A DNA stretch of 64,000 nt, taken from positions 5,350 to 69,349 of the IMG/VR virus record IMGVR_UViG_3300045988_058615. One strand, given 5' to 3'. The notes under the pieces are model-generated. The model had not been told where the DNA came from, did no database searches, and saw only the letters and a program-made list of their open reading frames with translations. This document shows, piece after piece, positions 4,511 through 57,618 of the stretch. The position numbers and the translations under genes were made by a program. This DNA comes from a virus. Numbering within the stretch: position 1 is the stretch's first letter; each line of letters begins with the position of its first letter.

Positions 4511-6331
4511 TTAAGATACTCTGTTTAGAGTCCTGAACCCAACAGTGGAAGTGGCAGCGCCGACGTCATAGTTAGAATAGAAAAAGCCAAGACCCGCATA
4601 GCTACCATTATTCGCAACGCCGCCCACCCGCAGCGTGCGAAGCGCTGTAGAGCTAGCGTTGCAATAGTGGTAATCACACATATAAGTTGTAGTTGAAGCT
4701 CCAGTACAAGAAGATGGTATAATCTCTGCTGTCTCTCCCAAGTCAAACTCTTTAATGTATCCATCTTGTGCTACCTCATATCCTGCTATAGTCTTGTCGC
4801 CAATTACGTCAGTAAACTCTTCCTTGTTTGTAGTAGTATATACACTACTGATTTCATTTGCCGCAGTTCTTTGAATAACTACTCCATCTAGGTTTGTCCA
4901 AATATCTCCAAATGGATTATCAAAACCTCTCCATCTTGGAACTTTAAATGTCTTAGTCACTACTGTATCTGTTCCGTTTGTTGCAGTACATTCTGGAATA
5001 ACTAAATCTTTGATTCCAGTGAAGTTACCAATATCATTACAATAACCACATGGAGTAATAGGATAGGTTCCATTATATCCAGACCAACTTGTAGCAGAGT
5101 TACTCCAGTCTGTAACTCCAGGACCAAGTCCTCCTTGACGATAACCATCAGAAGTAAGCTCAGCATTATAGGCAGCCTGAGAGTTAAAGTTAGCGTATTC
5201 TATTACATAGTTCCAGTAGAATATCCATTTATAATATTCATAACACAATAATTCAGAGCCTGCATTTGTGGCATAAGTTCTCATATTAGCTCTAGAAACA
5301 TTAGTTCTAGGTTTTCCTAAATCGCTTCTAAAAGCATCTTTGGTATCAAGTTCAGTAGTTAGATACTCATCGAATTGTGCTCTATTTCCACCGCCTCTAA
5401 ATGCTTCTGTAGTATTGACCACGGACACAGCTTTAGGGGTTTCTGACACAGTATTGTCAACTGTATTTCTATATGCGTCAATTAATAGTTCTGGTATTTC
5501 TGCCCACGAATCATCAAGCTTTACTAGAGAAATTCTAACCCATCTTTTATTTCCATTAGAGCCTGATTTACCATAAAATTTAGGAGTGTGGACTCTTACA
5601 GTCCCGTCGGTTCCATCAAGCACAGAAGGAGTACTCCCATCTTCTTTGTAAGCCCAATCGTCCGGATATAAATAGTAATTTACCACACCGTTATTTGCTA
5701 CACATCCTCTGTAAGCAGACTAAATAGGAAGGGATTTATGTAACAGTGGGTTTCCTATTCTAGTAAGGATAGGAGAAGATACGGTAATATCCCATTCTAC
5801 CCCATAAGAGTATAAGTCTACGTTACTGCTTAACTCTGTGACTTGTTTGCTTAGACTCTATTGTTCTTTTTGTAATTCTTCCCAAGCAGTATTAAGAGCA
5901 TCAAATTGTTCCTCTAACTTAGTACTAGTATCTGCCCACTATGCAGTCCCATCTTCAGAAAAGGTTAAAATCTATCCAAGTGCTCCTCCAGCAGGTATGT
6001 GTTTATTTCCAGAAGTAGTTGGGTGTACATAATTATTTGCATTATCTGCAATACCACTAAGTTTCTGTTTTTCAGTTTCTGTGTAATTAGCTTCAGAAAG
6101 TCCTTTTCCTAATTCTTTATCTACCTTACTTTCCAACTCCGTTTTAGTAGCTAAACCACTTATATCCTAGTGTTCCTTTAAATAATTTTCATCATTCTAT
6201 AACTAAGACACTTTAGTTGGAATGGCACTAGATTTTGCATATGTCTAATCTATAACATTTCCAGAGCCATCATAGGTAGCCTTTAAGTCATATACGGTTT
6301 CTCCAACCTTTATAGATTTGATAGCTGCCAT
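4511..6331 (-). CDS. Tail-fibre / receptor-binding protein, DGR target, about 607 aa, TAG-recoded
   Basis: Read from the ATG at 6331-6329 through several in-frame TAG into ORF 4511..5686. The sequence runs MAAIKSIKVGETVYDLKATYDGSGNVIDQTY...KHIPAGGALGQILTFSEDGTAQWAD...NNGVVNYYLYPDD..., and VR1 lies in the last ~35 codons. Confidence 0.7.
4538..4636 (-). repeat. DGR variable repeat VR1 at the 3' end of the tail-fibre gene
   Basis: Aligned base-by-base against 4338-4436. It differs almost only at TR adenines and is GC-richer. It encodes ...GGVANNGSYAGLGFFYSNYDVGAATSTVGF, a C-type-lectin-like end. Confidence 0.8.
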
Positions 6332-6339
6332 ATTATTGT

Positions 6340-9300
6340 ATTATTAAAGTTTCTTCTTCTACATTATGATCTATTCTTTCTATGGAGGCAGTTAAGTCTT
6401 CAACAGCTTTCTACAGTTCAGCCTTGGTAGCGTAGTTCTTTAATGTATCTGGGTCTATTCCAGATCCTCCTATATTTCCTCCAACAACTTTTACTGGTTT
6501 TGCTGAGTTCTTAAACTACCCTTCAACCCAAATTGTTCCCATACTATTTAAAATATTAATTGTTCATTTTCTCCATCTACCTGTACGTTACCAGAACCAG
6601 GCTATATTGCATCTATTTTCTTCTACAATTCGTCTACAGCAGCCTTTATTAATCCTTCCACCTCAGCTTTTGTATAGTAACGTTCTGTCAGATATTCACT
6701 TCTGACATATCCTGTATCCTATATATCTTTTTCTCCGTAAGTACAATAGTACGTATCGTTCTCTGTCCTATTATTTTCAACTAGGTCATCATAATCTGTT
6801 TGTGGAAGACATACCAATTTAGGAACCTCTTCTGTAAGAGCAACTTGCTTTCCAGATGCTAATAATCTATCGTCTTCTGTAGTAAGTTTAACAGAACTTT
6901 CAATAGTCTGTTCAGTTGTTTCATCTTCTGAACTTTCTCCAGTTGTTCTCTATTGTACTTCTTTTTCGACAATTTTCTAAATAGTAATATCAGAAGTTTC
7001 TATAGAGGTTGATTTCAGAAGCTCTGTACTAAATTCCTTAGAAGCGGCATCCTAATCTTCCTAATATTTCTTCTAGGTAACAAATATAAAATCGTCATCA
7101 CCGGTTTCGGGAGAATCTCCTCTCAAACTTTCTTTTGTTACATACTCCTCTGCTATCTAATTGGAAAGGTCAGTTAATGACTATTGAGTGGCGTATGTAG
7201 ATTGAGCATTTTCTTTCGTAAGAAACTTTTCATCTACCTACGAACTAGTGTAGTATGCTTTAATATCTTCTGTAGTAACGTAGCTTCCTAGTTTCTATAA
7301 ACCAGAAACAATTTCATCAATCTATGTCTTTGAGTAATAATTAGTGGCAACCCAGGACTAATACTGATGTGTAGTATGGTAATTTTGATCTAAGTACTCC
7401 TTAGTAATATAGACTTTAGCATCATTTGTTACATCATACACATAGTAATATGTATCAGGTTCTATAGCTTCCTCTTCTACCAGTCTTAAATATTCCTCTT
7501 CAGTTAATGTAACCAGATTAGGAACATCTGACATCATGGCGAATCGGTCTTCTCCAACAAACAATCCATCAGATTTAACATCTACTACTAGCTAATCCTC
7601 TTCTTCTACTATTGGAGACTTTATCTATCCTACAGTAATACTTTCTAGGGAACCATCCCCATCTACCTTTAAAGTCTTATCTAGCTCATCTTGGATAGCC
7701 TATTGGTCTTCGTCATACTATTTCTTTGTAACAAAAACAAAATCATCTCCTTCCATTCCTTCTCCTCTAAGACTTTCTTTGGTAACAAATATGTCATCAG
7801 TTTCTTCCTTAGTGTAATGGTTAGATAAGGCTTTAGATAACAAAGATTCTGGGTTCTCTAAATCTAAATCAGTTTTAGGGGCATAATTCTCAGTTAACTC
7901 TTCAAGAGTAGCATACTTGGAAAGGTTAGAGATTGTCTAGTCTAAATCCATTCTAATCTATACTACAGTAGTATTTAGAGCTTTCTATTTCAACTATTCC
8001 TCTATCTTTTTACCCCATTCTGCTGATAAATAAAACTAATCATCATCTAGGCCGTCTTCATATATATAATAATATGTTTCTGCATGAAGATATGTTTTAC
8101 CTTCGTCTATAGGTTTAAAATCTTCTGTGGTATTTTCAGACCATTCCTTATATTCAGCCTCTGTACAGGTGATTATCTAAATAGATTCATAAGAAGCTTT
8201 CCAACCTTCTTTGTATTTAATCTTAGACTTATCTACTAGCATATAAATATTTCCGTTATCTATATTTGAAACGGTCATGCCTTGATAAGCATATTTCTCC
8301 GGAATAGAATATAATTCGTCTAAATTATCGACTACTGTTCTATTATCAAGAGGTTTAGGAGTTTCTACGGTTAAAGCAACACCTAATGTAGCATCACCTG
8401 TATATTTAAATGCCATTATTGTGATAAAGTAAAGTTAATTTGGTGGGGCAATGCTGAAGAATAAGTATCCTTCTTAGTCCATACCTTATAAGGAAATCCA
8501 TTTATCTATTCGGTAGAAGTTTCCCAGCCACTTAAATCAACATTTAAGTATCCTAGTCCTCCATCTACTGTAAATGAATTTAGCTAAGTATTACTTCCAG
8601 GTAATTTTATAATAGCCTTTCCACTTAATGAAAATGTAATAATTCCAGAAGATTGTCCAAATGGAACAAGACTCTATTTGATTAAACTATCTGTATTACC
8701 AGAATACCAAGGGTAGGTAGCAGTCACCTATGCTGTAGTTGATATTGAACCAGCTTCCACTCTCTTCTCTGTAACTTCTCCTTTATTGTTAATAAGATAT
8801 TCTCCAGCAGCATAATTTACAGTACCAGAATGTACATAAACACCGATAGAATCATATGTTTCAGATTCTACAGGAGAATCATTATAGGTAATAGTTTCTT
8901 CTCTATCAGTTTCCTCTCCAGCATCATTTTTTATAAATGTTAAAGTAGGGGTAAGTAAAGCGGATCCTACCTCCACAATCTAAGAGGTGAAACTATAATA
9001 CAACTAAGGATAAACCAAATCTCTAACAACAGTAGGAAATAATAGAGTATCTATAATCTCATTAAACGGCTTTCCTTTCAATTTTTCAACTGTAGTTCCT
9101 TGAATAACAGCAGAAGTAGTATCATCTGGAAGTTCAGTTTGATAAGTAGCTATAGTTTCTAAACTTGTCTATATATTTGTGATATTCTCAGTATTAGAAT
9201 CTACTTTAGAATCAGTGTTCTTCTAAGCTTCCTATACTCCCTTAACTTCTTCCTTTACCTCTGTTAGAGATGGTTCCAAGTCTTTTACATATATTCCAGG

Positions 9301-11635: not shown

Positions 11636-13846
11636 TTAATGTATTTGTCTTATTTTGTCATTATATGGATTTCCATCATGAAGCTAAGCCAACTCTATTT
11701 CAGTTCTCTTTTCTTCTATATCCATTTGTCTATCTTTATATGTAGAATCAGATTGAGCTTTGAGCCAGTTAACCTTATATTCTAACTACATTTTCTGCTA
11801 TTCTAATCCTAATCTCTACTCATCCAAACTTTCTATCTTCTACTAAGCTTTCTATAGTTCTTGCTGTAACTGCTATGCCTATTGTGAAGTTTCTTCCAAT
11901 TTTTCCTATAGCTACTATAGCTAATTGTTTTCTTCTTTACGAATCTATACTGCTTTCTTAACCTTATATTTAAGGTCTGTAAGACTCTTAGCAGTTAGTG
12001 CTTCAAATATGATGTCAGGATCCATTTGCTGGCTTTTAACAAACTCTGGAATAATAGCTTTAATAGTTTGTAAATCTTCCATTACTTCAGAGCTAGAAGT
12101 TATATGGATATCATAGTCAGTAACCGTAAAATATTCTGGAAGCGCTGTAAATATCTGCTAGTATTTATCTCCAAGTATAATAGTACCAGTCAATCCTTTC
12201 TTATATGTTATTTTAGCCTAGTTTAGACTATCCAATAATATCTCACAGGTGATTAGGTCCATCTACTAGAAATAATGCTTGGTTACTATGTAAGAGTTAG
12301 TAACACCTTGCTTAATATTAGTTACAGCATCGTGAGTATCTATTCCATTTAATCTTTCTCTAAATACTCCAGTTATAGATGACGTAGTTTGTTCTACTGA
12401 TTGAATTGCTAATTCAATAGCCTATACAGCCTAAGCTTTTAAGGTATCATCAAATCCATTGTATATCTAGTTAGGTGCTTGCGCTCCATCATTTCTCCCT
12501 TCCTAAGTAGAATCAATCCACATGATACCACCCTTCTTGTATGCTAACCATTTCTATACTCTCTCCGGCCACTTTACGCCTAGGTTAGTAGGAAGTAACG
12601 ACATATCCATGATTACACCAGCGGTACCACTATTAGCTATTAGGTTGTCTCTATAATAGTTTAGTAGGTCATATCTATCCTATAGATGCGCACATTTTAA
12701 TATTAAGGAATATGGTTGTTGAGAACGATTTAAGAAATATACCCCATTCACAGATAGAGAACAGAAATTGGGATTGTCTTTTGACCTCATAACAGTCTTA
12801 TCTAGACCTCTAAGGATATATATCTCCTCCCCAATTCTAATTGTGTTATATCTCTGCATTACAAAATCGTCATCAGTTTCTATCCATTCTACGTCATAAA
12901 CTGGAATTAACTAAAATCTGTGAGCACTATATTCATTATCTGGGTATCCAGGAATGGTTTCATGATTCTAATCTTCATTTACTATGGTACAAGTGTCACC
13001 ATAAACTCTTCTATAAACTGCAGCAGAATCATCAGCTCTCCACTCATCTTTTAGTCTTTTCAAATCCTCTCTAGAGATTTCTTTCCCGTACTTAGCTAAT
13101 ATCTAGCTTTTACTCATCCATTTTCTAACTACTACTCTATAAGAATTTCTAACATATGGAGATTCTGGATTTCTATCTACGAAAGTATTCAGGGGATTTA
13201 AAACTTCTATTTCTATGTTAGTTCCAGAAGATGATGATTTTACTCTGAAAAATGTATATCCAGTAATTAATAAATCTGTAAGTAACTATCGGAGTTTAGT
13301 TATTAAATCGGTTTCTCTAGACTGCATAATATAATGAATAATATTCTATGCAGCTATCTCATATTGAGAAATAAAAGACTAATCAATATCTTGAATAATT
13401 TTATCTAACTAAGTCTTCACGGCTTTATCTGTAATATCTTTTCCATCGATAAATTTCAGAATAGAATTACTTAAATGGTCTCTAAGAAATTTAACTATTC
13501 CTTTAGTTATTTCTAACTATTTTTCTCTAGTGATATTACTAATGGTATCTGAATCCTTACAAGAAATCTTCGGAAGGATAGGGGTTCCTAGATATTCCCC
13601 TACTAGAGCATCTACATGCTTTTTTAGTAATGGTGTAAATTCTACAGAAGTAGGACTACCTATTCCGAAGTTTTCTTCCAGGTAACGAAACTATTCTGGG
13701 TCTCTCTTTCCGTTATAGTAATTATAAGCTTTCTATAATTCGTACTTATCATATACAAGCTCCGCAATAGCCTCGTTCGTCTTGTCTATCAGTTCTTTTT
13801 CTTTCATAACATAAATTATGCTGTTCTGGAGGAAGTTTAGTTGCAT
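11636..13846 (-). CDS. Putative portal protein, about 736 aa, TAG-recoded
   Basis: A long reading frame lies directly downstream of TerL. The N-terminus is MQLNFLQ.../MKEKELIDKTNEAIAELVYDKYELQKAYNYY. The C-terminus is a Gln-rich coiled coil, QQLQEKLEETSQQAQQLQQELQKAQQKIESLDEQ, in which every Q is a TAG, then ...HDGNPYNDKIRQIH and a TAA at 11636-11638. Confidence 0.45.
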
Positions 13847-14004
13847 TATAGTATTTAACTCTTTGTAACTTCCTACTTCTTAATTCTTCCTTTATAAATG
13901 GGAGAAATTCTTCATCAGGTAAATCAGCTATAATGACTAAAGGCATCTCTGACCTATCAAAGTTAAACGATACCTTATAACCAACTGGATCTAGGTTCTG
14001 AATT

Positions 14005-16365
14005 TCAAGCCCACCTACGTATTCCATTTTGTACAAGTCTCTCATATAACCTAGGATCACTTGTTTCAATTCTGTATGGGTCATCGTATTCATTTTTTTG
14101 TATGTTAGCTTCAAAAGTCTTAGAAGTTGGTATAACCCCAAATCTTTTGATTCCTCTCTCGTCATAATAATAACCATAATCTTGGAATTGTTCAACTTCT
14201 TTTTCAACAAGCACTGGCTATCTTCCTGACAATTCCTAGTCTGCCAATTCTGTCATTCCTACAGCGGCCACAATATCGAATTTACCTTTATTCTCATCAT
14301 TATATCCAGTAAATTGGTCTAACATTTCTTCAAACCATATAGTATGACAGAAATCCTCAATAAAGGCTGCCGTCAAATCAGTATGTTGTTCTATAATAGT
14401 TTTGGTAGCAGGTGTTCCATACTATTTAGTAGTTCCATTCTTGACGTCTGTTAGAGTAGCTCTAGGTCTTTTCATAAAATAGTTTAAACAGCCTTTTTCC
14501 CTAGCCCATGTAACCATACCCATACGAGTAGCTTCTATGTTTATTCTGCAATTATAGTATCTAGCTAAACACATAGCTATTTTATAGGCTTCTCTGATGT
14601 CGTTAGGTCTGTCTTTATACATAGCAACATACTACGGTTCGTTTAGACCAAATGCTCTTCTTTTTATAGTTATACAGAAATCAGAAGGGTCTCTTGTTTC
14701 TTTTGAAGTTTGACTAGCTCCTATATCAATACCGTCTATTCCTGCAACATATAAATCATGCATTTCTTTGTATGCTGGAGATTCAAATTCTTCTCCCCTT
14801 TCCTCAGCTTCCTATCTAAGTTTATCCATCTACTCTTTATACAAATCAGACCATACAGGATGTTCAAGTATTTTTACTTTTCCGTTAATATTAGGAATCC
14901 ATTTAAAACCATCTATATTATCCTAGGTATGTTTATTGTTTTTATAGAAGTAGTCTATGTATCCAGATTCTGGTCTTGGTCCTATTTTCTTAAGTCTTAT
15001 ATTAGCTAATTGGTCCGCAATAAGAATCTTGTTGAACTTGTTGACACCTTCAAGATTAAATGCTTCTTCCGCATTCCAACATCGTTCAGCACACTTCTTT
15101 AGATAGTCGTCTGGAACTGCTAATAAATTGTCACGCTCTTCCTATAGATACTTTTTATATTCTACTGTATTACATACACCTCTATGGTCCATGTATTCTG
15201 AATTTAGAGACTAGACAAAATATGGAATGAAGAATCCACTTTCAATAGTAGTTCCATCCTGTGTATAATTATGTCTAAACGGAAGAACCTTGTAAGCTTT
15301 TGGATTGTAATATATCTTCTTAAGACCTGCTAATGGAGCACCCATATCACCACCAGTACCTCCAAATAACATTGTTCCACGAGGTTTACCCTGAACTTCG
15401 CAAAGCTCTTGCCCCTGCACTACAGCAGTATCTAGTCCAGGCCAAGACCCTGCTTCATCATATATTAATAAGTCAACACGGTCTCCACGAATATTAGATG
15501 CCTTAGCTCCATTTATTCCAACTACTTCTGATTTAAATCCAACATCCTCAAACTGCCCGTTTACCTTAATCTGTTTACCAGACTTTTTTCTTAAGTCTTG
15601 GTCAATCAAACGTAGTTTGAAGAATCCTCCCCCTGTAGAAGTATTCAAGAATGTTAAAGCATTATCAAACTTACTAAAAGTACCTTTAAGGAAGGTATCA
15701 TTAAAACAAGTAATCATTACTCTGCTTCTTCTGATTACTGAATACATTCTTGCAGATAAGGATGCATTTATTTCAGAGAATCCAATAGAACGAGCTTTCA
15801 TAAGAGCTGCGTGTTTATGCAGAACTCTAGCCATCTACAGATAATGAAAGAACATATAATGAGATGCGAAAAATATAGGAAAGTCACTACTTGTTCCTTC
15901 TCCAGATGCCTTGTTATCATCAATAATAGGAAGCTAGTAGAAGTTTAGGAAGAAATAGTTATCTCCAGTAATTGTATAACCATTAACAGTCATTCCATAT
16001 TTACATCTTCTATACTATTCCTTCCAAAACTCATTATATCTCTTACTATCTTTTAGATATGGACAATACTTTCCAGTTTTTCTATATACTTCTCTGGTCT
16101 CAGTAAACCAATCTGGGTCGAAGTCAAGACCATGTGTTTCATCTATCGGTCTATATCCAGTTATTTCATAAGATAAAGTAGGGTCAAATACCTCTATCTT
16201 GTCTCCTCTTTTTACATCCCAATAATCAGCATTTTTGCCTCTTTCCTCTCTTATCTTCTATACTAGTTCTCTAGCTTCTTTGGCATCCTCTTTTTGTTCT
16301 TTCTCTCTTACCTAATCTACTATATTCTAGATTTCTTCAGGTAATATTTTTTTCTTTCTAGGCAT
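14005..16365 (-). CDS. terL: Terminase large subunit, 786 aa, about 14 in-frame TAG
   Basis: Hand translation runs from the ATG at 16365 to the TGA at 14005-14007. It joins ORF fragments 15211-15834, 14422-14622 and 14005-14214. Walker-B-like VDLLIYDEAG, nuclease-type VAGIDGIDIGASQ, MPRKKKILPEEIQNIV N-terminus. Length is a multiple of 3. Confidence 0.75.
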
Positions 16366-16367
16366 AA

Positions 16368-16928
16368 TTAAAAGTCTCCTGGGTCAAAGCCGTCTGTAGC
16401 TCCACCTCTTACAGTAGATTGTTCTGTAAGCTCTTTCTTAACCTGCTCTTCTAGTGTTACTAATTCTTCATGAACTTTATGAAGAGTAGCCATTTCTTTC
16501 ATTACCTTTTCAGCTTGAAAGACGGGTTTGCCATTATTATCACGTTCATTTAAATCTACTATAGTATCAAAATAATCAATAAACTAGTCAGCTGCTCTTT
16601 TAGCTGCTTCTAGAAGTTTTATTGATTTGTTAGAATCCTACAATGCCCGGTATTTTCTACAGGCTTCCCTGAATAACGGGTCATTGAACTCAGATTCAGA
16701 TAGTCCAGAGTCACTAATAGCTTCATCATGTCTTTCATGTTCTGAATATTGGCTATAGGGACTCTTCCAATCAATAGCTAGATAAATGTAAGATAATTCT
16801 CTAGTTACTCGTTCCTTGTCAACAGATTTGTCTCTCTGTATCAAAGCCTTAAATTCTTTAACTAGAAGAAGCTCTGGTTCATTTATTTCTAACTATTTAG
16901 TTAAAGTGTTATAATTAAATACATTCAT
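16368..16928 (-). CDS. Putative terminase small subunit, 186 aa, 4 in-frame TAG
   Basis: MNVFNYNTLTKQLEINEPELLLVKEFKALIQRDKSVDKERV...GGATDGFDPGDF. It stops 2 nt before the terL ATG. Position-based call. Confidence 0.4.
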
Positions 16929-21712: not shown

Positions 21713-21729
21713 AACTATTAATTTTGGCG

Positions 21730-21801
21730 TTGCCCTACTAGGATTCGAACCCAGACTAAATGATTTAGAGTCATCTGTGCTGACCATTACACCATAGGGC
21801 A
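21730..21801 (-). tRNA. Amber-suppressor tRNA(CUA), derived from tRNA-Gln
   Basis: Minus-strand sequence TGCCCTA-TG-GTGT-AATGGTCA-GCAC-A-GATGA-CTCTAAA-TCATT-TAGTC-CTGGG-TTCGAAT-CCTAG-TAGGGCA-A. The acceptor has 7 perfect base pairs, the anticodon loop is CU-CUA-AA, and the D and T arms are nearly identical to tRNA-Gln(UUG) at 33778-33848. Confidence 0.85.
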
Positions 21802-31016: not shown

Positions 31017-32990
31017 ATGACAACAGGAACTCTTATTGTAGCAGGTGTTATTGTATTACTCGTAGTTTTAACCTTTATCGGACTTTTGTCACGGTATCGC
31101 AAATGTGCCAGTGATGAAATTCTGGTTGTGTTTGGTAAGGCTGGTAAGAAGAAGGTAGTTAACGAGAAGACTGGAAAGTCGGAGGAAGTTATTCTGCCGT
31201 CCAAAATCATTCATGGTGGAGGTACATTCGTAATGCCGGTAATCCAGGACTGGGCTAAAATGTCCTTGAAACCTATCCAAATTCAAGTAAATGTTACTGG
31301 TGTTTCCAGTCAAATGATTAAGGTAACTATTCCTGTAACATTGACCACTGGTATTGGGACCACTCAAACATTGATGCAAAATGCTGCAAGTAGATTCTTA
31401 ACAGCTAAAACTTCTGAAATCTCAGACCAAATCAAGGATATTCTCATTGGTGAAGTGAGAAGCTTGATGGCTACGATGACAATTGAGGAAATTAACGCTG
31501 ATAGAATCAAGTTTATCGGCAAAGCTAAAGAGAATATTGAGACCGAGTTGAATAAAGTAGGTTTCAGTATTATCAACATTAACAATGCTGATATTTCGGA
31601 TGATGCAAACTATATCAAGAATCTAGGTCAGAAAGCTGCAACTAAAGCTCTTGCTCAGGCACAGGCTGACATTGCGGAAGAGAAAAAGAAAGGAGATATC
31701 CAGATTGCAGAAACCAACAAGCAGCGCGAGATTGCTGTAGCAGACGCTGAGAAAGAGCGTGAAACTACTGTTGCCCAGACTAGACAAGAGCAAGAGGTTC
31801 GTGTGGCAGAGATTAACCAGGAGAAGGAAATCAAACTTGCAGAAGCTGAGAAGAATAAGCAATCAGGTATTGCTAATCAGAAAGCTGAGCAAGCTGCTAA
31901 TATTGCTAAAGCTAATACTGCAGCGGAATCGGAGAAAGCTAAAGCAGAAGCTGAGAAAATTTCAGCTATAGCTAAAGCTCAAGCAGAAGCCGATTCTAAT
32001 AGAGCAGAGTCTGAATCACTGGCTGAGGCTAATGTAGCCAGGGCTAAAGCAGAAGCTGACTCTAAGAAGGCAGAAGCAGAAGCAGAGAAACAAACTCGTA
32101 TTGCTCAGGCCAAACAGAGGCAGGAAGCCGAGACGCAAAAGGCAATTAACGAACAGGAAGCTGCAGTTGCTAAGTATGAGTCAGACAAGCGTGTAAAGGC
32201 AGCTGAAGCTGATAAGATTGCAGGAGTGGCAGAACAAAATGCCACAATTGAAGTCTCTAAAGCTAAGGGAGAAGCTGAGAAAGCTAAGGCTGAAGCTGAA
32301 AAGGTAGCAGGAACTTCTAAAGTAGAAGCTCAGATGACTATCGAAAAGACCAAGCAAGAAAAGCAACTAGAGGTGAATGAGGCAGCTGCATTGGCTATGG
32401 AAGCTAAGCTTCATGCTGAAACGATTGTTCCCGCTCAAAAAGAAAAGGAACGTATCACGATTGAAGCAGAAGCTGTAAAGCAGAAAGCTGTGCTTGAAGC
32501 AGAAGCTAAGGCTGCTGAGATACTGAAAGAAGCAGAAGCTAAGGCAAATGCTACTAAGTTACAGTTAGAAGCAGAAGCAGAAGGTACTAGAAAGAAACTG
32601 CTTGCTGAAGCAGAGGGTAAGAGAGCATCTTTGATGGCTGAGGCTGACAAGGTTCAGGCTATTGAAATGGCTCCTGCTCTGGCAGTCCAGAAGATGATTG
32701 AATCCGGCTTGACTCCAGAAATGGTGGTTCAGTACAAGACAGTTGATCAATTGACCGGTATTGCTGAAGCATCTGCTCAGATGTTTGAACACGTTCACCT
32801 TGGACAGGTTACTGTTTATGGTAACGAGAACACCGCTGGTAACTTTATGGCTAAAACTGCCGAGAACTTGAATCCTGCGTTCGACTTGCTTCGCTCTATA
32901 CCTTTTGCCGATACACTGAAAAGTATTCTCGGTAAGAAAGGGTTGGAGGAGAAGAAAGCCGAAACAACTGAGTTTGAAGAAGTGAAGTAA
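31017..32990 (+). CDS. Flotillin-like SPFH/band-7 protein (YqiK/FloA-like), 657 aa
   Basis: N-terminal transmembrane helix, an SPFH domain (ILVVFGKAGKKKVV...IQIQVNVTGVSSQMIKVTIPVTL), and about 350 aa of EA-rich coiled coil (AEAEKAKAEAEK repeats). Confidence 0.7.
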   Translation: MTTGTLIVAGVIVLLVVLTFIGLLSRYRKCASDEILVVFGKAGKKKVVNEKTGKSEEVILPSKIIHGGGTFVMPVIQDWAKMSLKPIQIQVNVTGVSSQMIKVTIPVTLTTGIGTTQTLMQNAASRFLTAKTSEISDQIKDILIGEVRSLMATMTIEEINADRIKFIGKAKENIETELNKVGFSIININNADISDDANYIKNLGQKAATKALAQAQADIAEEKKKGDIQIAETNKQREIAVADAEKERETTVAQTRQEQEVRVAEINQEKEIKLAEAEKNKQSGIANQKAEQAANIAKANTAAESEKAKAEAEKISAIAKAQAEADSNRAESESLAEANVARAKAEADSKKAEAEAEKQTRIAQAKQRQEAETQKAINEQEAAVAKYESDKRVKAAEADKIAGVAEQNATIEVSKAKGEAEKAKAEAEKVAGTSKVEAQMTIEKTKQEKQLEVNEAAALAMEAKLHAETIVPAQKEKERITIEAEAVKQKAVLEAEAKAAEILKEAEAKANATKLQLEAEAEGTRKKLLAEAEGKRASLMAEADKVQAIEMAPALAVQKMIESGLTPEMVVQYKTVDQLTGIAEASAQMFEHVHLGQVTVYGNENTAGNFMAKTAENLNPAFDLLRSIPFADTLKSILGKKGLEEKKAETTEFEEVK

Positions 32991-39053: not shown

Positions 39054-39138
39054 TCCGATTTAGCTCAGCTGGCAGAGCGCCCACAGCTATAATAATTACA
39101 TCGGTGGGAGGTCAGGGGTTCAAATCCTTTAATCGGAA
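39054..39138 (+). tRNA. tRNA-like gene with a 19-nt anticodon loop (identity unknown; expanded loop or mini-insertion)
   Basis: Acceptor TCCGATT/AATCGGA is perfect, the D arm GCTC-AGCTGGCA-GAGC is canonical, and the T arm is AGGGG-TTCAAAT-CCTTT. The anticodon stem CCCAC/GTGGG encloses AGCTATAATAATTACATCG. Confidence 0.4.
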
Positions 39139-40311: not shown

Positions 40312-40384
40312 GGGCCGTTAGCTCAAATGGCTAGAGCGCTGGTTTTGCACACCGGAAGATAGGGTTCGAGTCCCTGCGTGTCCA
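40312..40384 (+). tRNA. tRNA-Ala(TGC)-like with poorly paired acceptor stem (possible pseudogene)
   Basis: GCTC-AAATGGCTA-GAGC-G-CTGGT-TTTGCAC-ACCGG...TAGGG-TTCGAGT-CCCTG. Acceptor GGGCCGT vs CGTGTCC pairs only 4 of 7. Confidence 0.35.
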
Positions 40385-40697: not shown

Positions 40698-41123
40698 ATG
40701 AATTTCAAGAATCTTACAAAGGAATCTCTTCCGAAAGAATTTCAGGAGAGAATTGAACGTTTCAATCGTTTGTTCGTTGAAGCTGGTGATGGTACATTTG
40801 AAGAAAATGACCTATTCGATTATGAAATGGCTTGTATAAAGCAAGCCCTATCATTCTCTGAGTTTTTCAAAGAAATGAGTCTGGAGGAATGTAAAGCCTT
40901 CTATGAGAAATATCCTAGCTTATTTGAGCTGATTGAGGCCATTAAAGATAAACTTCCATACTTTGATAACGGTCATAGTGGAAACTCCATGAGCATGAGT
41001 TGGATGCTATACAGATGTTATAAGGAGAAACCTGAGCTTGTTCCTTATATGCACGGTTGTTTGGCTCAACTTGTTGGGGACGAAGGCTATCATGACAACC
41101 GTTCTGATGTTCCAAAACTATGA
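40698..41123 (+). CDS. Hypothetical protein, 141 aa
   Basis: ORF, followed by the hairpin CCCGTC-TAATT-GACGGG at 41132-41148. Confidence 0.45.
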   Translation: MNFKNLTKESLPKEFQERIERFNRLFVEAGDGTFEENDLFDYEMACIKQALSFSEFFKEMSLEECKAFYEKYPSLFELIEAIKDKLPYFDNGHSGNSMSMSWMLYRCYKEKPELVPYMHGCLAQLVGDEGYHDNRSDVPKL

Positions 41124-41154
41124 GTGTAAACTCCCGTCTAATTGACGGGAATAT

Positions 41155-41701
41155 GGGCCTACTTGGATTTGACAGGCGATTACAAATTATAAGGACGTGT
41201 AGAGCGCAATCTCTTTAAACGACGAAAACAAATAACTGCAGAAATTGCACCTGTAAGAATGGCAGCCTAAGCTGCTGGCTTATTAATAGACACTATTAAT
41301 CAAGTCGGGTTACTGGAGAGACCTAGAAACAGAAGAGGTTAGGTGTATCGCTAATGGCGTGCGGACGATAATCCGTGGTATATCTTTAATCAGAACACTC
41401 TAAGAGTTAGTAAGACTGAATCTCCATTGTCTTTAAACAGAAGGGATGCGTGGTTGACTCACCACAAACACTCGTTTTCCTACTTTAGCGTTAAAAAGTA
41501 GGTGGTGGAAGAATGACTTCGGTCAGCCCCTAGTTTGGTGGTTTGTAAACTAGTTTCTGGAACTCCGATAGTGTAGTTTAGAGTAAGTCTAGTAAAACTA
41601 TCTAAATGCTAGAACTCACTAGCTGATGTAATAAAAATGAGACGCACGTTATCCTTGTAATAAGGGTTGTTTGGACACGGGTTCGACTCCCGTTAGGTCC
41701 A
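41155..41701 (+). ncRNA. ssrA: tmRNA-like (ssrA) gene, about 547 nt
   Basis: The 5' end GGGCCTACTTGGATTTGACAGGCGATT matches the E. coli pattern GGGGCTGATTCTGGATTCGACGGGATT. The 3' end GGAC-ACGGG-TTCGACT-CCCGT-TAGGTCC-A matches GGAC-GCGGG-TTCAACT-CCCGC-CAGCTCC-A. The acceptor GGGCCTA/TAGGTCC carries G3·U70. Internally, TAGAGC-GCA-ATC...AAACGACGAAAAC matches the E. coli TAGTC-GCA-AACGACGAAAAC resume region. Confidence 0.75.
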
Positions 41702-41789
41702 CACTCTTTGTAGCAATTCCTGGCACGGGAAGTGTCCTGATATAAAGACGCTTGTAAATGTGCACTTGCATGGTGATACAAAGAGAAAT

Positions 41790-41863
41790 AGGGCTATAGC
41801 TCAACTGGTTAGAGCACCACACTGATAATGTGGAGGTTATCAGTTCAAGTCTGATTAGCCCTA
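41790..41863 (+). tRNA. tRNA-Ile(GAT), second copy
   Basis: AGGGCTA-TA-GCTC-AACTGGTTA-GAGC-A-CCACA-CTGATAA-TGTGG-AGGTT-ATCAG-TTCAAGT-CTGAT-TAGCCCT-A. Confidence 0.8.
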
Positions 41864-42031
41864 CTTAAATGACATATTATGAGTTACAGAAAGAAGTGGT
41901 TTAAAAAGTTAGAAGGAAAATATCTATGAGACTTGCCATGAGTAGAGAAATATGGTACTGGGATTAAATATCGAGGCTGTGGTGTAATGGCTTGCATATC
42001 ACACTGTCATTAAAATTAATTAAACTTATCT

Positions 42032-42583
42032 GTGAATAGAGAACAATCTCTTAAATTGTATTATGAGAATCCTAACCACTGTAAGGAATGTGGTAAGGTA
42101 ATCGAAGTACTAGATAATCAGAGGGTCGCAGATGTAAGGAAGAAACAATTTTGTAGTCATTCGTGTGCTGCTTCCTATAATAACAAAGGTAGAACAAAAC
42201 ACGATGAAAACAAGATATGTCCTAGATGTGGTAAACCTAAGCACAAAGATTCAGAAATGTGTCGTAGTTGCTGGGAAGAACTTAATGGGATTGGCAACAA
42301 AACATTAGGTTATTATACATCTGGTCAGAAGTACTTATCATCTAAATGTCAAGAAATAAGGACTAATGCTCGTAAAGTATTAGAAAGTTCCGAACGTGAG
42401 AAAGTATGTCAATATTGTCATAATCACGAATTTGATGCAATACTTGAAGTACACCATCTTAAAGGAATACTAGAGTTTGACGAAGACACTCTTATTAAAG
42501 AGATTAACAATGAGAATAATTTAGTATGGTTATGTCCTAATCACCATATTATGTTAGAGAAAGGTTTAATTAGTCTGGAGTAA
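42032..42583 (+). CDS. HNH homing endonuclease with N-terminal zinc fingers, 183 aa
   Basis: ...EVHHLKG...NLVWLCPNHH (HNH motif) and several CxxC pairs. Confidence 0.7.
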   Translation: MNREQSLKLYYENPNHCKECGKVIEVLDNQRVADVRKKQFCSHSCAASYNNKGRTKHDENKICPRCGKPKHKDSEMCRSCWEELNGIGNKTLGYYTSGQKYLSSKCQEIRTNARKVLESSEREKVCQYCHNHEFDAILEVHHLKGILEFDEDTLIKEINNENNLVWLCPNHHIMLEKGLISLE

Positions 42584-52912: not shown

Positions 52913-53929
52913 ATGAAGAGAATTTTTAGTATTATTTGTTTGTGTTTGATGTGTGCATTTGCTAGCGCACAAGTTGTTGAGACTGGAAGTATGAAGGATA
53001 ACTGGTATATTTCTGGTAATGTTGGAACTACTATTTGGGATAACCATAGAAGTTGGGCAGAACCAAATGATGTACTAGTAAACATTGCTATTGGTAAGGA
53101 GATTACTCCTATCTTTGGCTTGGAGTTAGACATGATGGCTGGAATGAACCAAGGAAATAAAACATTCTTTGATTCACATAATTTGACAGCTAACGTTACT
53201 ACCAATCTTACTAACCTGATATGTGGATATAACGGAGATAGACGTCTGTTTGAGCCTATATTAATCGTTGGTGCTGGTTGGTATCATACTTATGGAGATG
53301 TCTATAATAATGTATCCGCCCGTGGAGCCGTTAGATGTAACTTTAATATCTCTAATAAATGGGCATTAAATGTTACTCCTGAATATATGTTACTTCCCAA
53401 GACTTCCCCTCTGAATCATGAGTTTAACGTCTATATTGGTGCTACCTATCGCTTTAAGTCTAGTAAGGGAGACTTTCCAATTATGAAGTTGTATAGTGAT
53501 GCCGAGGTTGAAAGCCTAAACGCTTCTATTAATGAGTTGAGAGCCAAGAATGAGGAACTTATAGCCCGTAAACCAGTAGAAATTGTTAAGACGGACACAA
53601 TCGAAATTACTAAAGTAGAGCTTTTGACTCCAAAAATTCAATTCCTTCAAAATTCTTCAGAGATTTCTAAAACTTCCAATGTGGCTGTCTCAGAACTAGC
53701 TTCCTATATTTCTAATAGTGGGAAAACTTATGTGATTGAGGGATATGCTTCGGAAGAAGGCCCAGAAGAGTTTAATAATAACCTTGCTGTAGCTAGAGCA
53801 GAATCTATGAAGAAGGCTCTGATTAGCTATGGTGCTCCAGAGGATAAATTGGTTGTTAAGGGATGCGGAATTACCACTGAATTTGGAGATAATGAATTTA
53901 ACCGTATCGTAATAATTTCCGAACAATGA
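52913..53929 (+). CDS. OmpA-family outer-membrane protein: signal peptide, beta-barrel-like N-domain and OmpA C-domain; 338 aa
   Basis: MKRIFSIICLCLMCAFASAQ signal peptide. The C-terminus TYVIEGYASEEGPEEFNNNLAVARAESMKKALISYGAPEDKLVVKGCGITTEFGDNEFNRIVII matches the OmpA/MotB peptidoglycan-binding pattern. Confidence 0.6.
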   Translation: MKRIFSIICLCLMCAFASAQVVETGSMKDNWYISGNVGTTIWDNHRSWAEPNDVLVNIAIGKEITPIFGLELDMMAGMNQGNKTFFDSHNLTANVTTNLTNLICGYNGDRRLFEPILIVGAGWYHTYGDVYNNVSARGAVRCNFNISNKWALNVTPEYMLLPKTSPLNHEFNVYIGATYRFKSSKGDFPIMKLYSDAEVESLNASINELRAKNEELIARKPVEIVKTDTIEITKVELLTPKIQFLQNSSEISKTSNVAVSELASYISNSGKTYVIEGYASEEGPEEFNNNLAVARAESMKKALISYGAPEDKLVVKGCGITTEFGDNEFNRIVIISEQ

Positions 53930-56055: not shown

Positions 56056-57618
56056 ATGGAAATAATTAATGCAACAGATGGATATAAATTAGGCCATCAC
56101 AGAATGTATCCAGAAGGTACTGAACAGGTTTATAGTAACTGGACTCCTAGAAGTAACAAATACTTTCCAGAAGCCACTGAAGGTTCTGTAGTATTCGGAA
56201 TCCAATATTTAATTAAGAAGTATCTGATTGATGAATTTAATCAGAATTTCTTTGGATTACCTAAAGAAAAGGCTATAGAAATGTTTTATCGGAGAGTCCA
56301 TAATTTCGTGGGAATTGAATCTGTAGGATATAGACATATTGAAGCTCTATATGATTTGGGTTATCTTCCCATTCGCATTAAAGCATTGCCAGAAGGTTCA
56401 GTATGTCCTATTAGGGTTCCCATGATGACTATTACTAATACAAAATCAGAGTTCTTTTGGTTAACTAATTATCTAGAAACTTTAATTAGTTGCACTCTGT
56501 GGATGCCCTGTACTTCTGCTACTAGAGCAAGACTCTATAAGAAAGAACTTAAGAGACATGCAATACGTACCGGATTTCCAGAAGACGTTAATTTGGATTT
56601 CTTGTGCCATGACTTCTCTATGAGGGGAATGGCTGGTTTGGAGGCTGCTATCATCTCTGGCATGGCACATATGACGTCATTTGTTGGGAGTGAGACCATT
56701 CCAGCTATTGCTGCTCTAGAAGAGTATTATGGTGCAAATTCTGACAATGAATTAATTGCTGCTACTGTTCCGGCTACAGAACATTCTGTAATGTGTGCAG
56801 GCGGGGAAGAAGATGAACTTCAAACCTTCAAACGATTGATTAATGAATTGTATCCATCTGGCTTCGTTTCTATAGTTTCTGATACTTGGGACTTCTGGAA
56901 TGTTATCGAGAACTTCCTTCCCAAATTAAAGAAGGATATTATGGCACGTGATGGGCGTGTAGTTATTCGTCCAGATAGCGGAGACCCTGTTGATATTATT
57001 TGTGGTTTGAGAACTAATCCTCATTTCCACACTAGAATGAAAGAGGGTAAATATTATTGTTGCTATGCCCCATTTAATGATGATGCTGAGTATGTAGAAG
57101 TTTCAGAAGGTCAATACTATGGTGCTTATTATATGCTCGGTAAGATTTTTGGATGGAATACTACTTCCAAGGATTATCGCTATCCTAGCACTAAAATAGG
57201 TTTGTTGTACGGAGATTCCATCACTCTGGAAAGACAGAAGCAGATCTATTTGAGACTTGAGAATGCTCATATGGCCGCTTGTAATCTTGTTCTTGGTGTT
57301 GGCTCATTTTCATATCAATATGCAAGTAGAGATAGCTTAGGCTTTGCAATCAAAGCTACTGCCTGTGTGGTTAATGGAGAATTGAAAGAAATATTCAAAC
57401 ATCCTAAAACAGATGATGGAACTAAAAATTCTCTTAAAGGTCTAATTGCTGTCTATCAGGACGTTAATGGCGTTTACTATGCTGAAGACCAGGTAACTCC
57501 TGAGGTAGAAAGTGGAGGCTGTTTAGAGACTGTGTTCGAAGATGGTGTCCTTAAAAAGGAGTACACTCTTAAAGAAATTAGACAGCGGATTAATGAAGGG
57601 CTTTATGGAAAGTTTTAA
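56056..57618 (+). CDS. nadV: Nicotinamide phosphoribosyltransferase (NadV/NAMPT), 520 aa
   Basis: The NAMPT signature is co-linear: TDGYKLGHH...IKALPEGSV...FFWLTNYLETL...LCHDFSMRG...TVPATEHSVM...VSIVSDTWDFWN...IRPDSGDP...LYGDSIT. Confidence 0.8.
   Translation: MEIINATDGYKLGHHRMYPEGTEQVYSNWTPRSNKYFPEATEGSVVFGIQYLIKKYLIDEFNQNFFGLPKEKAIEMFYRRVHNFVGIESVGYRHIEALYDLGYLPIRIKALPEGSVCPIRVPMMTITNTKSEFFWLTNYLETLISCTLWMPCTSATRARLYKKELKRHAIRTGFPEDVNLDFLCHDFSMRGMAGLEAAIISGMAHMTSFVGSETIPAIAALEEYYGANSDNELIAATVPATEHSVMCAGGEEDELQTFKRLINELYPSGFVSIVSDTWDFWNVIENFLPKLKKDIMARDGRVVIRPDSGDPVDIICGLRTNPHFHTRMKEGKYYCCYAPFNDDAEYVEVSEGQYYGAYYMLGKIFGWNTTSKDYRYPSTKIGLLYGDSITLERQKQIYLRLENAHMAACNLVLGVGSFSYQYASRDSLGFAIKATACVVNGELKEIFKHPKTDDGTKNSLKGLIAVYQDVNGVYYAEDQVTPEVESGGCLETVFEDGVLKKEYTLKEIRQRINEGLYGKF

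Follow-up and report, generated by a model that had tools for sequence, protein, structure and literature searches.

A gene for transfer-messenger RNA (tmRNA; ssrA) was identified on the plus strand at positions 41155–41701 of a 64,000-nt stretch of virus DNA, corresponding to positions 5,350–69,349 of the IMG/VR virus record IMGVR_UViG_3300045988_058615 and referred to here as the window. A preliminary description, made from the letters of the sequence, had proposed a tmRNA gene with exactly these coordinates inside an array of phage tRNA genes, and this placement proved right: it is supported by the score against a tmRNA covariance model, the fold of the RNA, compensatory base changes among relatives, the tag reading frame and the conserved order of neighboring genes. 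The gene is thereby confirmed as a genuine phage tmRNA gene, and its comparison with relatives indicates that it probably encodes a working tmRNA.

Covariance-Model Match and Gene Ends

The Rfam tmRNA model RF00023 matched positions 41155–41704 (+) with a score of 74.6 bits (E 4e-27), above the gathering score of 47, and the match spanned model positions 1–374, i.e., the full model. The relatives described below scored 55–96 bits with the same model, and the divergent relatives 91–96 bits. The 5′-end of the gene is GGGCCUA-CUUGGAUUUGAC and the 3′-end is GGAC-ACGGG-UUCGACU-CCCGU-UAGGUCC-A, as given in the preliminary description, which had likened both to the tRNA-like domain of bacterial tmRNA. 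In the minimum free energy (MFE) fold of the 547-nt sequence alone, nucleotides 1–7 are paired with nucleotides 540–546, bringing the two ends together as had been predicted, and the T arm and a long P2 helix are also formed; the MFE z-score of the gene is −2.66 relative to 100 dinucleotide shuffles. CCA is not encoded at the 3′-end, the gene terminating in …GGUCCA followed directly by CAC. Likewise, 25 nearby phage tRNA genes lack an encoded CCA and have the same 3′ context (A followed by CAC), a likeness which suggests that the tmRNA and the tRNAs enter the same 3′ maturation pathway.

Other assignments for the region were discarded. The model of the permuted two-piece tmRNA (RF04321) gave partial matches only, at ~20 bits against a threshold of 47, and the gene is collinear; the tmRNA_permuted match inside the gene was taken as chance, as was a match to wcaG (25.6 bits; threshold, 42). 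An ssrA 3′ fragment of the kind found at att sites was ruled out, because the gene has both of its halves as well as the tag and lies in the interior of the 64-kb phage window; in the fragment cases encountered on other contigs, the 5′-half of ssrA is missing.

A Family of Phage tmRNA Genes

Homologues were collected by exact-pattern scans for both gene ends in three sequence collections, which identified a total of 62 complete tmRNA copies of 514–574 nt, 43 of them distinct, on contigs of human-gut phages of about 186–194 kb. The carriers in IMG/VR are contigs mostly of 95–192 kb, and those from human-gut metagenomes include apparently complete contigs of 191.8–194.3 kb; one carrier contig belongs to a metagenome-assembled genome (MAG) labelled ‘uncultured Clostridium sp.’ and bears the same phage tRNA array. 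Identity to the window gene, measured in the 5′ and 3′ parts, ranges from 96% down to ~75%. In every related locus checked, the tmRNA gene lies between tRNA-Met and tRNA-Ile, -Asp, -Thr and -Glu, and the same neighbors recur in about 60 independent assemblies; in many relatives, the tRNA-Ile gene starts only 7 nt 3′ of the tmRNA. A 19-nt 5′ signature of the gene occurred on five contigs among 185,579 species genomes, one of which carries a tmRNA and is phage-like; the other four hits have no tmRNA, and approximately four chance matches were calculated for a 19-mer in 596 Gb. In two independent assemblies, L038 (7390–7958) and L114 (reverse strand, ~8151–8700), the 3′ acceptor strand of the tmRNA has been replaced by TGGCGTT, after which a terminator-like hairpin is found, and recombination at the T arm with another tRNA-like gene is suspected.

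Core Helices

The core structure, consisting of the acceptor stem, the T stem, three P2 segments and six further helices (Table 1), was scored on an alignment of 26 sequences. A total of 98.5% of the core cells are paired, compared with 29–47% when the partners are slid by 1–3 columns, and 12 compensatory pairs are present, compared with 4.2 ± 1.3 in shuffles (0/500 reach 12) and 0–3 in the slid controls. Of these 12, the middle of P2 accounts for four, the hairpin that follows the tag for three, the T stem for two and the acceptor stem for one. P2 contributes 23 pairs with 100% of the cells paired and shows compensatory change at 4/9 pairs of its middle segment. The two compensatory pairs of the T stem (5 bp, with a canonical 7-nt loop) convert ACGGG/CCCGU to GAGGG/CCCUC, and acceptor pair 7 changes from A-U to G-C in the divergent relative L042. 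The acceptor stem and T arm are kept in 26/26 aligned sequences, and the G3·U70 alanine identity pair that the preliminary description had pointed out is G·U in all 26 as well; we infer that the RNA is probably charged with alanine through this pair. The gene carries all the sequence features by which the tRNA-like and mRNA-like halves of a one-piece tmRNA are recognized, and across the family these determinants appear to have been kept by selection.

Table 1. Features of the tmRNA gene and its surroundings (window coordinates)
Feature	Position	Strand	Basis or remark
Amber-suppressor tRNA(CUA)	21729–21801	−	Recoding device of the phage
Upstream hairpin, 7 bp, 4 nt from the mature 5′-end	41132–41150	+	Most relatives have a hairpin here, in differing sequence
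One-piece tmRNA (ssrA) gene, 547 nt, ending at the discriminator A	41155–41701	+	RF00023 match
Acceptor stem 5′ strand GGGCCUA	41155–41161	+	Pairs with 41694–41700; 7/7 pairs kept in 26/26
G3·U70 alanine identity pair	G41157·U41698	+	Invariant, 26/26
P2 5′ strand, three segments	41173–41181, 41187–41195, 41196–41200	+	Pairs with 41644–41673
P3 hairpin AGAG-CGCAAU-CUCU (4 bp) at the PK1 place	41201–41214	+	No convincing second stem
Frame-setting bases AUAACU	41232–41237	+	Rfam alignment, family conservation
Resume codon GCA	41238–41240	+	Rfam alignment
Tag AEIAPVRMAA	41238–41267	+	Rfam alignment; ARAGORN on shortened gene
Stop-codon hairpin GCAGC-CUAA-GCUGC, stop in loop	41262–41275	+	100% paired, no variation, uninformative
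Stop TAA	41268–41270	+	Rfam alignment; ARAGORN on shortened gene
Helix 5-like hairpin after the tag	41277–41306	+	Three compensatory pairs
Pseudoknot stem 1 GGGUU/GACCU	41307–41311 with 41320–41324	+	Hairpin
Pseudoknot loop segment UGGAGA	41314–41319	+	Pairs with UCUCCA 41421–41426
Module V1 stem-loop, within the long pseudoknot loop	41339–41385	+	30–76 nt in every subfamily
UCUCCA, distal strand of the long-range pseudoknot helix	41421–41426	+	43/43 sequences
Conserved block	41473–41525	+	Two hairpins
Hairpin CCUACUUU/AAAGUAGG	41479–41486 with 41495–41502	+	Relatives CUCCA/UGGAG or CUUCA/UGAAG
UUCG-loop hairpin	41514–41525	+	Covarying stems in relatives
Long arm with variable tip V3	41532–41607	+	Base helix 98% paired; inner helix covaries
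Terminal hairpin GCUAG-AACUCA-CUAGC	41608–41623	+	Alignment
P2 3′ strand	41644–41648, 41652–41660, 41665–41673	+	Alignment and MFE fold
T arm ACGGG-UUCGACU-CCCGU, acceptor 3′ strand UAGGUCC, discriminator A	41677–41701	+	Compensatory change
tRNA-Ile(GAU), conserved downstream neighbor	41790–41864	+	ARAGORN and synteny

Tag Reading Frame

The preliminary description had left two candidate frames for the tag peptide, and the longer one, ending in APVRMAA, was upheld by the Rfam alignment and by ARAGORN applied to a shortened gene (see below). Five tag variants occur in the 62 copies, all of them in frame, 9–10 codons long and ending in RMAA (AEIAPVRMAA, 28 copies; ATYSEVRMAA, 25; AEIDYNRMAA, 5; AAYSEVRMAA, 2; GNTTYRMAA, 2); they are stopped by TAA in 56 copies and by TGA in six, and by TAG in 0 of the 62. 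The bases preceding the resume codon are AAUAACU, AAUAAAU, AAUAAUU, AAUAGUU or UUUAAGU, the U at −5, the A at −4 and the U at −1 being the same throughout the family, in agreement with the frame-setting context of Escherichia coli tmRNA, AAUAGUC followed by GCA. The 10 residues of the window gene’s tag correspond to the commonest tag length among tmRNAs (PMC11915505). In three relatives, the loop of the stop-codon hairpin is GUGA, with TGA as the stop.

The alternative frame, AISLNDENK, was rejected because its start falls within the P3 hairpin loop and because relatives carry 1-nt insertions or deletions in the linker through which it runs. The segment GCA-AUC-UCU…AAC-GAC-GAA-AAC, previously taken for the resume region, in fact covers the 3′ part of the P3 hairpin and an A-rich linker, and its likeness to the tag codons of E. 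coli is judged to be coincidental.

Expanded Pseudoknot Domain

The gene had also been described as longer than most bacterial tmRNAs, and rightly so: the RF00023 consensus comprises 374 positions and a Bacteroides-type ssrA 394 nt, compared with 514–574 nt in this family. The ~170 surplus nucleotides of the window gene are situated downstream of the tag and upstream of the 3′ strand of P2, and they bring the pseudoknot domain to approximately twice its usual size. Conserved blocks alternate in this middle domain with three modules, V1, V2 and V3, each of which forms a stem-loop in every subfamily with sequences that are unrelated between subfamilies; the closing stem of V1 has 5–11 bp of such unrelated sequence. 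The surplus nucleotides are inferred to represent an expansion of the pseudoknot domain by these variable stem-loop modules. A group I intron was rejected as their source, given that the T loop GGGUUCGACUCCC is continuous, that no Intron_gpI match was obtained at E ≤ 1, and that the surplus is spread over at least three modules of the domain.

A comparison of relatives with regard to pseudoknots PK1–PK4, for which the preliminary description had envisaged folding, recovered one pseudoknot in 43/43 sequences and only a hairpin at the place of pseudoknot 1 (PK1). The long-range pseudoknot is a prediction well supported by the comparison of relatives: the 6-bp helix between the loop of its stem 1 and the distal strand is perfect in all 43 distinct sequences, in seven sequence combinations (GGGAGA/UCUCCU, UGGAGA/UCUCCG, UGGAGA/UCUCCA, GGAGAA/UUCUCC, UGGGGA/UCUCCA, AGGAGA/UCUCCU and GGAAGG/CCUUUC). 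PK1, by comparison, appears to be reduced to a hairpin: no covarying second stem was found in the window gene or its relatives, the downstream candidate partner varying without compensation, and in L036 and L042 the P3 place is occupied by a 7-bp hairpin whose 4-nt loop is too small for a pseudoknot. PK1 is the most important pseudoknot in E. coli tmRNA; it is not universal among tmRNAs and can give way to a hairpin in E. coli, and for these reasons its absence is not taken to exclude the gene from the tmRNAs.

Further pseudoknot candidates in the PK2–PK4 region show little or no covariation, and single-sequence MFE folds of the middle domain disagree between subfamilies. A column-based search for covarying helices was noisy, since the subfamilies swap non-homologous modules. 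Among the individual helices, the hairpin after the tag has a homologue in L042 that Rfam aligns to helix P5 of the model, and one pair in the base helix of the long arm is seen as G-C, G·U and A-U. Relatives differ in how the three modules are combined with one another and with the 5′-half of the tag (AEIAP or ATYSE); for instance, L007 carries a window-type tag on the body of another subfamily (alignment columns 90–105 and 195–530 mix among relatives). This reassortment of tag halves and modules points to recombination inside the tmRNA gene.

Failure of the Standard Gene Finder

ARAGORN, which the preliminary description had named as a means of detection, made no tmRNA call on the intact gene, whether it was run on the window or on the tmRNA region, and lowered thresholds yielded spurious or ‘permuted’ calls only. 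When positions 181–330 of the tmRNA were removed, leaving 400 nt, the program called a standard tmRNA with the tag AEIAPVRMAA, and a copy shortened to 450 nt was still missed. Among 48 distinct flanked copies, 43 received no call and five, the 515-nt copies, were assigned a wrong tag (VQQKDD...). The failure is explained by the length of the gene, with its doubled pseudoknot domain, and hence does not contradict the covariance-model match. Surveys of phage tmRNAs rely almost wholly on ARAGORN (PMC7162821, PMC12291355), and its 0/48 correct calls indicate that the carriage of tmRNA by gut phages is underestimated and that a covariance-model pass is needed.

Phage Genome and Neighborhood

The window is phage DNA, with a structural arm that includes portal and terminase genes and with matches to phage protein families. 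Its terminase is nearest, among classified phages, to that of Crassvirales (26–29% identity), the nearest of which have Bacteroides, Flavobacterium and Azobacteroides as hosts, and the phage is assigned to the large human-gut viruses as a distant relative of Crassvirales. In the late arm at 1–22.5 kb (−), the tail, portal and terminase genes are open only with TAG as a sense codon: long frames increase from 1,469 to 6,120 codons when TAG is read as sense, and the portal frame (11636–13879) and terminase frame (14005–16383) contain 34 and 15 in-frame TAGs, respectively. The plus-strand arm from ~22.5 kb uses the standard code; its large open reading frames (ORFs) have 0–1 in-frame TAG, its stops are TAA (26), TGA (7) and TAG (2), and it is here that the tmRNA lies, among roughly 28 phage tRNA genes. 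The preliminary description had set the tmRNA next to the recoding machinery, which does not hold, the amber-suppressor tRNA being 19 kb away on the opposite strand. This suppressor gene is located at the ~22 kb switch of gene orientation and GC-skew sign, between the recoded and the standard arms.

Most relatives, like the window, have a hairpin immediately upstream of the tmRNA that ends 4–5 nt short of it, and at least three versions with unrelated sequences exist; the hairpin is possibly a terminator or a precursor processing element. No sigma-70-like promoter was found just upstream of the tmRNA, and the Bacteroidota promoter motif TTTG-N17-23-TAnnTTTG was not enriched (4 found, 3.06 expected); TATAAT-like boxes occur ~50 nt upstream in many relatives. 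A 141-aa ORF just upstream, at 40698–41123, was considered as a candidate SmpB gene and rejected: neither Pfam nor PHROG gave a match, and the protein, with its many acidic residues, was judged unlike SmpB. No functional link of this ORF with the tmRNA is seen, as the distance between them varies from 31 nt to >1 kb in relatives.

Several other elements were observed around the gene. Two tRNA-like genes at 39054–39138 and 40312–40384 (+), with Rfam scores of 48.9 and 39.5 bits, are unreported by ARAGORN, and an HNH endonuclease ORF is found in the tRNA array at 42032–42583 (+); the variable spacing between conserved neighbors in relatives might reflect insertions of HNH-like elements. A RAGATH-14 RNA (RF03145; 150.7 bits against a threshold of 149.1) is located 31 nt upstream of the tRNA-like gene 24202–24274 (region 23975–24274, +), to which ARAGORN assigns the four-base anticodon ‘gcag’ and Rfam a tRNA score of 38.3 bits, and in L036, L039 and L042, all of them divergent relatives, RAGATH-34 RNAs lie ~1.5–2 kb or less from the tmRNA. 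The early arm also carries a nicotinamide phosphoribosyltransferase gene at 56056–57618 (+; PHROG 448, E 2.5e-182) and, at 31017–32990 (+), the gene for a 657-aa protein with an SPFH/Band-7 domain. The ORF at 52913–53929 (+), which encodes an outer-membrane beta-barrel domain and an OmpA domain, is possibly involved in remodelling of the host envelope; the presence of an OmpA-family ORF suggests a diderm host. A Bacteroidota host is plausible, with indirect support from the Crassvirales-like terminase, the OmpA-type gene, and the Bacteroides-like tRNA-like domain and tag GNTTYRMAA.

Proposed Function and Alternative Explanations

According to the proposed mechanism, the tmRNA would be transcribed together with the tRNA array and, like the nearby tRNAs, would be cut at its 5′-end by RNase P, trimmed at its 3′-end and supplied with CCA, after which the host alanyl-tRNA synthetase would charge it with alanine through G3·U70. 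Together with EF-Tu and with SmpB, which is assumed to be that of the host, it would enter ribosomes that have stalled at the end of an mRNA which is broken or lacks a stop codon; translation would resume at the GCA at 41238, add (A)AEIAPVRMAA and stop at UAA, whereupon the ribosome would be released and the product marked for proteolysis. The phage would probably benefit by keeping ribosomes available while host mRNA decays or while host defenses cleave RNA. An extra benefit may lie in the clearing of ribosomes that the amber suppressor has driven past UAG to the 3′-ends of mRNAs; read-through by suppressor tRNAs is documented as a source of trans-translation substrates in work referred to in a passage of PMC3985003 (Ueda et al., 2002).

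Several points weigh against a working tmRNA. A tblastn search with E. coli SmpB as the query found no SmpB in the 64-kb window or in the flanks of the family loci, the other ~125 kb of the genome lying outside this scope, and an SmpB search of viral contigs matched only E. coli-type prophage ends. PK1 is not recognizable, and the 330-nt middle domain is for the most part without a settled structure. The tag end, itself conserved, falls partly within a conserved hairpin, so that constraint on the RNA and constraint on the peptide are inseparable there. Finally, the destroyed acceptor stem of the L038/L114 copy indicates that the gene can be lost.

The phage could instead employ the RNA as a decoy that binds host SmpB or alanyl-tRNA synthetase and damps host trans-translation, as the RNA of mycobacteriophage DS6A is reported to do. 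Such a decoy would make sense if host tagging destroyed phage proteins stalled at TAG before suppression was established: in recoded E. coli, tmRNA resolves stalls and tags at unassigned UAG and blocks phage propagation (PMC6207430), and a tmRNA-like molecule consisting only of the tRNA-like domain inhibits tmRNA, perhaps by titration of SmpB (PMC4131195). That no phage SmpB was seen in the sequences searched is also in keeping with this explanation. It is nonetheless considered quite unlikely, since a decoy needs the tRNA-like domain only, whereas the resume context, the in-frame tag, its AA end and a non-TAG stop are all kept in 43 distinct sequences. These 43 sequences, which span down to ~75% identity, are also invariant at G3·U, in the T loop and at the end of the tag, and this argues against a decaying relic, i.e., a host ssrA captured long ago that has fallen out of use and drifts; a drifting gene would lose its frame and its stop, and the compensatory changes preserve the helices. 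The L038/L114 copy without an acceptor stem, the reduced PK1 and an interior that cannot be aligned to Bacteroides ssrA are what a relic might look like, but for the family as a whole this explanation is highly improbable.

That the gene is bacterial and owes its place to misassembly or to host-derived DNA, or that it is an att-site remnant of integration into ssrA, is scarcely credible. The gene is full length, lies deep in a phage tRNA array and has the same neighbors in about 60 assemblies, and the only true hit of the 19-nt signature in the species genomes is on a phage-like contig; these facts have to be set against many IMG/VR contigs sharing the T arm that are prophage ends with ssrA 3′ fragments or that carry host ssrA and smpB, and against the family member found in the MAG labelled Clostridium.

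A working, phage-encoded tmRNA is thus the preferred explanation. That it also forms part of a code-switching kit of the phage is rather unlikely. If this were true, suppressor read-through of host and early UAG stops would flood the cell with stop-less complexes, and a tmRNA produced from the standard-code arm, with a tag that is never UAG-ended, would clear them; the non-host tag end (RMAA, not ALAA) might route the products to a different fate, and the enlarged modular pseudoknot domain could suit phage-modified ribosomes or shield the RNA from host nucleases. A competition between ribosome rescue and TAG read-through, raised in the preliminary description, is speculation. Read-through and rescue would interact directly in a phage that recodes TAG, and the occurrence of a tmRNA in such a lineage offers a concrete case in which to study how phages with a reassigned stop codon deal with unwanted consequences of suppression.

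Comparison with Known tmRNAs

For comparison, a Bacteroides-type ssrA (L226:8181–8574; 394 nt; tag GETNYALAA; 147.9 bits) was recovered with a degenerate tag pattern; an earlier Bacteroides tag pattern, taken from a synthetic construct, had given no match. GETNYALAA is the native Bacteroides degron (bioRxiv 10.1101/2025.03.18.644028). The phage genes are similar to Bacteroides ssrA in the acceptor stem with G3·U70, the T arm, P2 and the stemless D region with GGAUUUGAC, and they share with bacterial tmRNAs UA(A/G)NU before a resume codon starting with G, a tag of 9–10 codons ending in Ala-Ala, a stop codon placed in a hairpin and the lack of an encoded CCA. In L042, the 3′ tRNA-like half differs from that of Bacteroides ssrA at 2/33 positions, and the tag GNTTYRMAA has 5/9 residues in common with GETNYALAA. 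In contrast, the phage genes are longer (514–574 nt vs. 394 nt), their PK1 is reduced, their pseudoknot domain is approximately doubled and built of interchangeable modules, their tags end in RMAA rather than ALAA, and no smpB is adjacent. The preliminary description had raised the choice between a captured host gene and a divergent phage version: the tRNA-like ends are indeed close to those of Bacteroides and are the only parts that align globally, the interior being unalignable. These few characters suggest that a Bacteroidota-type ssrA was acquired long ago and has been diverging in phages ever since, rather than having been captured recently.

Phage tmRNAs are known from mycobacteriophages of the Bxz1 group and from Bacillus phage G (PMC4131195; a passage of PMC1475703 also places them in mycobacteriophages and phage G), and from huge phages, in which they were found by ARAGORN (PMC7162821); an ARAGORN survey reported tmRNA in 7/788 gut viral genomes (PMC12291355). 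The family described here resembles them as a complete tmRNA in a large, tRNA-rich phage of lytic type, with a presumed role in ribosome rescue. The known phage tmRNAs are of ordinary size and detected by ARAGORN, whereas members of this family are longer and are missed or mis-tagged. Other phage tmRNAs observed in IMG/VR are of ordinary length (337–417 nt); those of L054, L064, L083, L055, L060 and L080 (contigs of 134–252 kb) are 371–417 nt long, some of them lie inside tRNA arrays, and their unusual tags include DEVEYRLAA, DTNTVVLHPAFSAACARAAA and GNGYEYDYGFSGNRAAALLAA.

Genes longer than 500 bp are otherwise represented by intron-form tmRNAs, which a recent database paper picked out by combining a length limit of 500 bp with a cut-off on score; in those genes, a group I intron interrupts the T loop (PMC11915505), unlike in the present family, which at 514–574 nt without an intron appears to be longer than ordinary standard-form tmRNAs. 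The tmRNA-like RNA of mycobacteriophage DS6A is also a phage-borne relative of tmRNA; an inhibitor in its action (PMC4131195), it retains little beyond its tRNA-like domain, whereas the window gene keeps the full tag frame. tmRNA is unmentioned in a preprint on stop-codon recoding in phages and in a paper on zeta crAss-like phages, and no report of tmRNA in crAss-like phages was apparent from titles and abstracts, a partial coverage under which an earlier description is possible. Phage tmRNAs as such are therefore known, and what appears to be new is the oversized, modular build with a reduced PK1 in a TAG-recoded, Crassvirales-related gut lineage; with its reduced PK1 and interchangeable modules, this family provides a natural test of how far the pseudoknot ring of tmRNA is dispensable and expandable.

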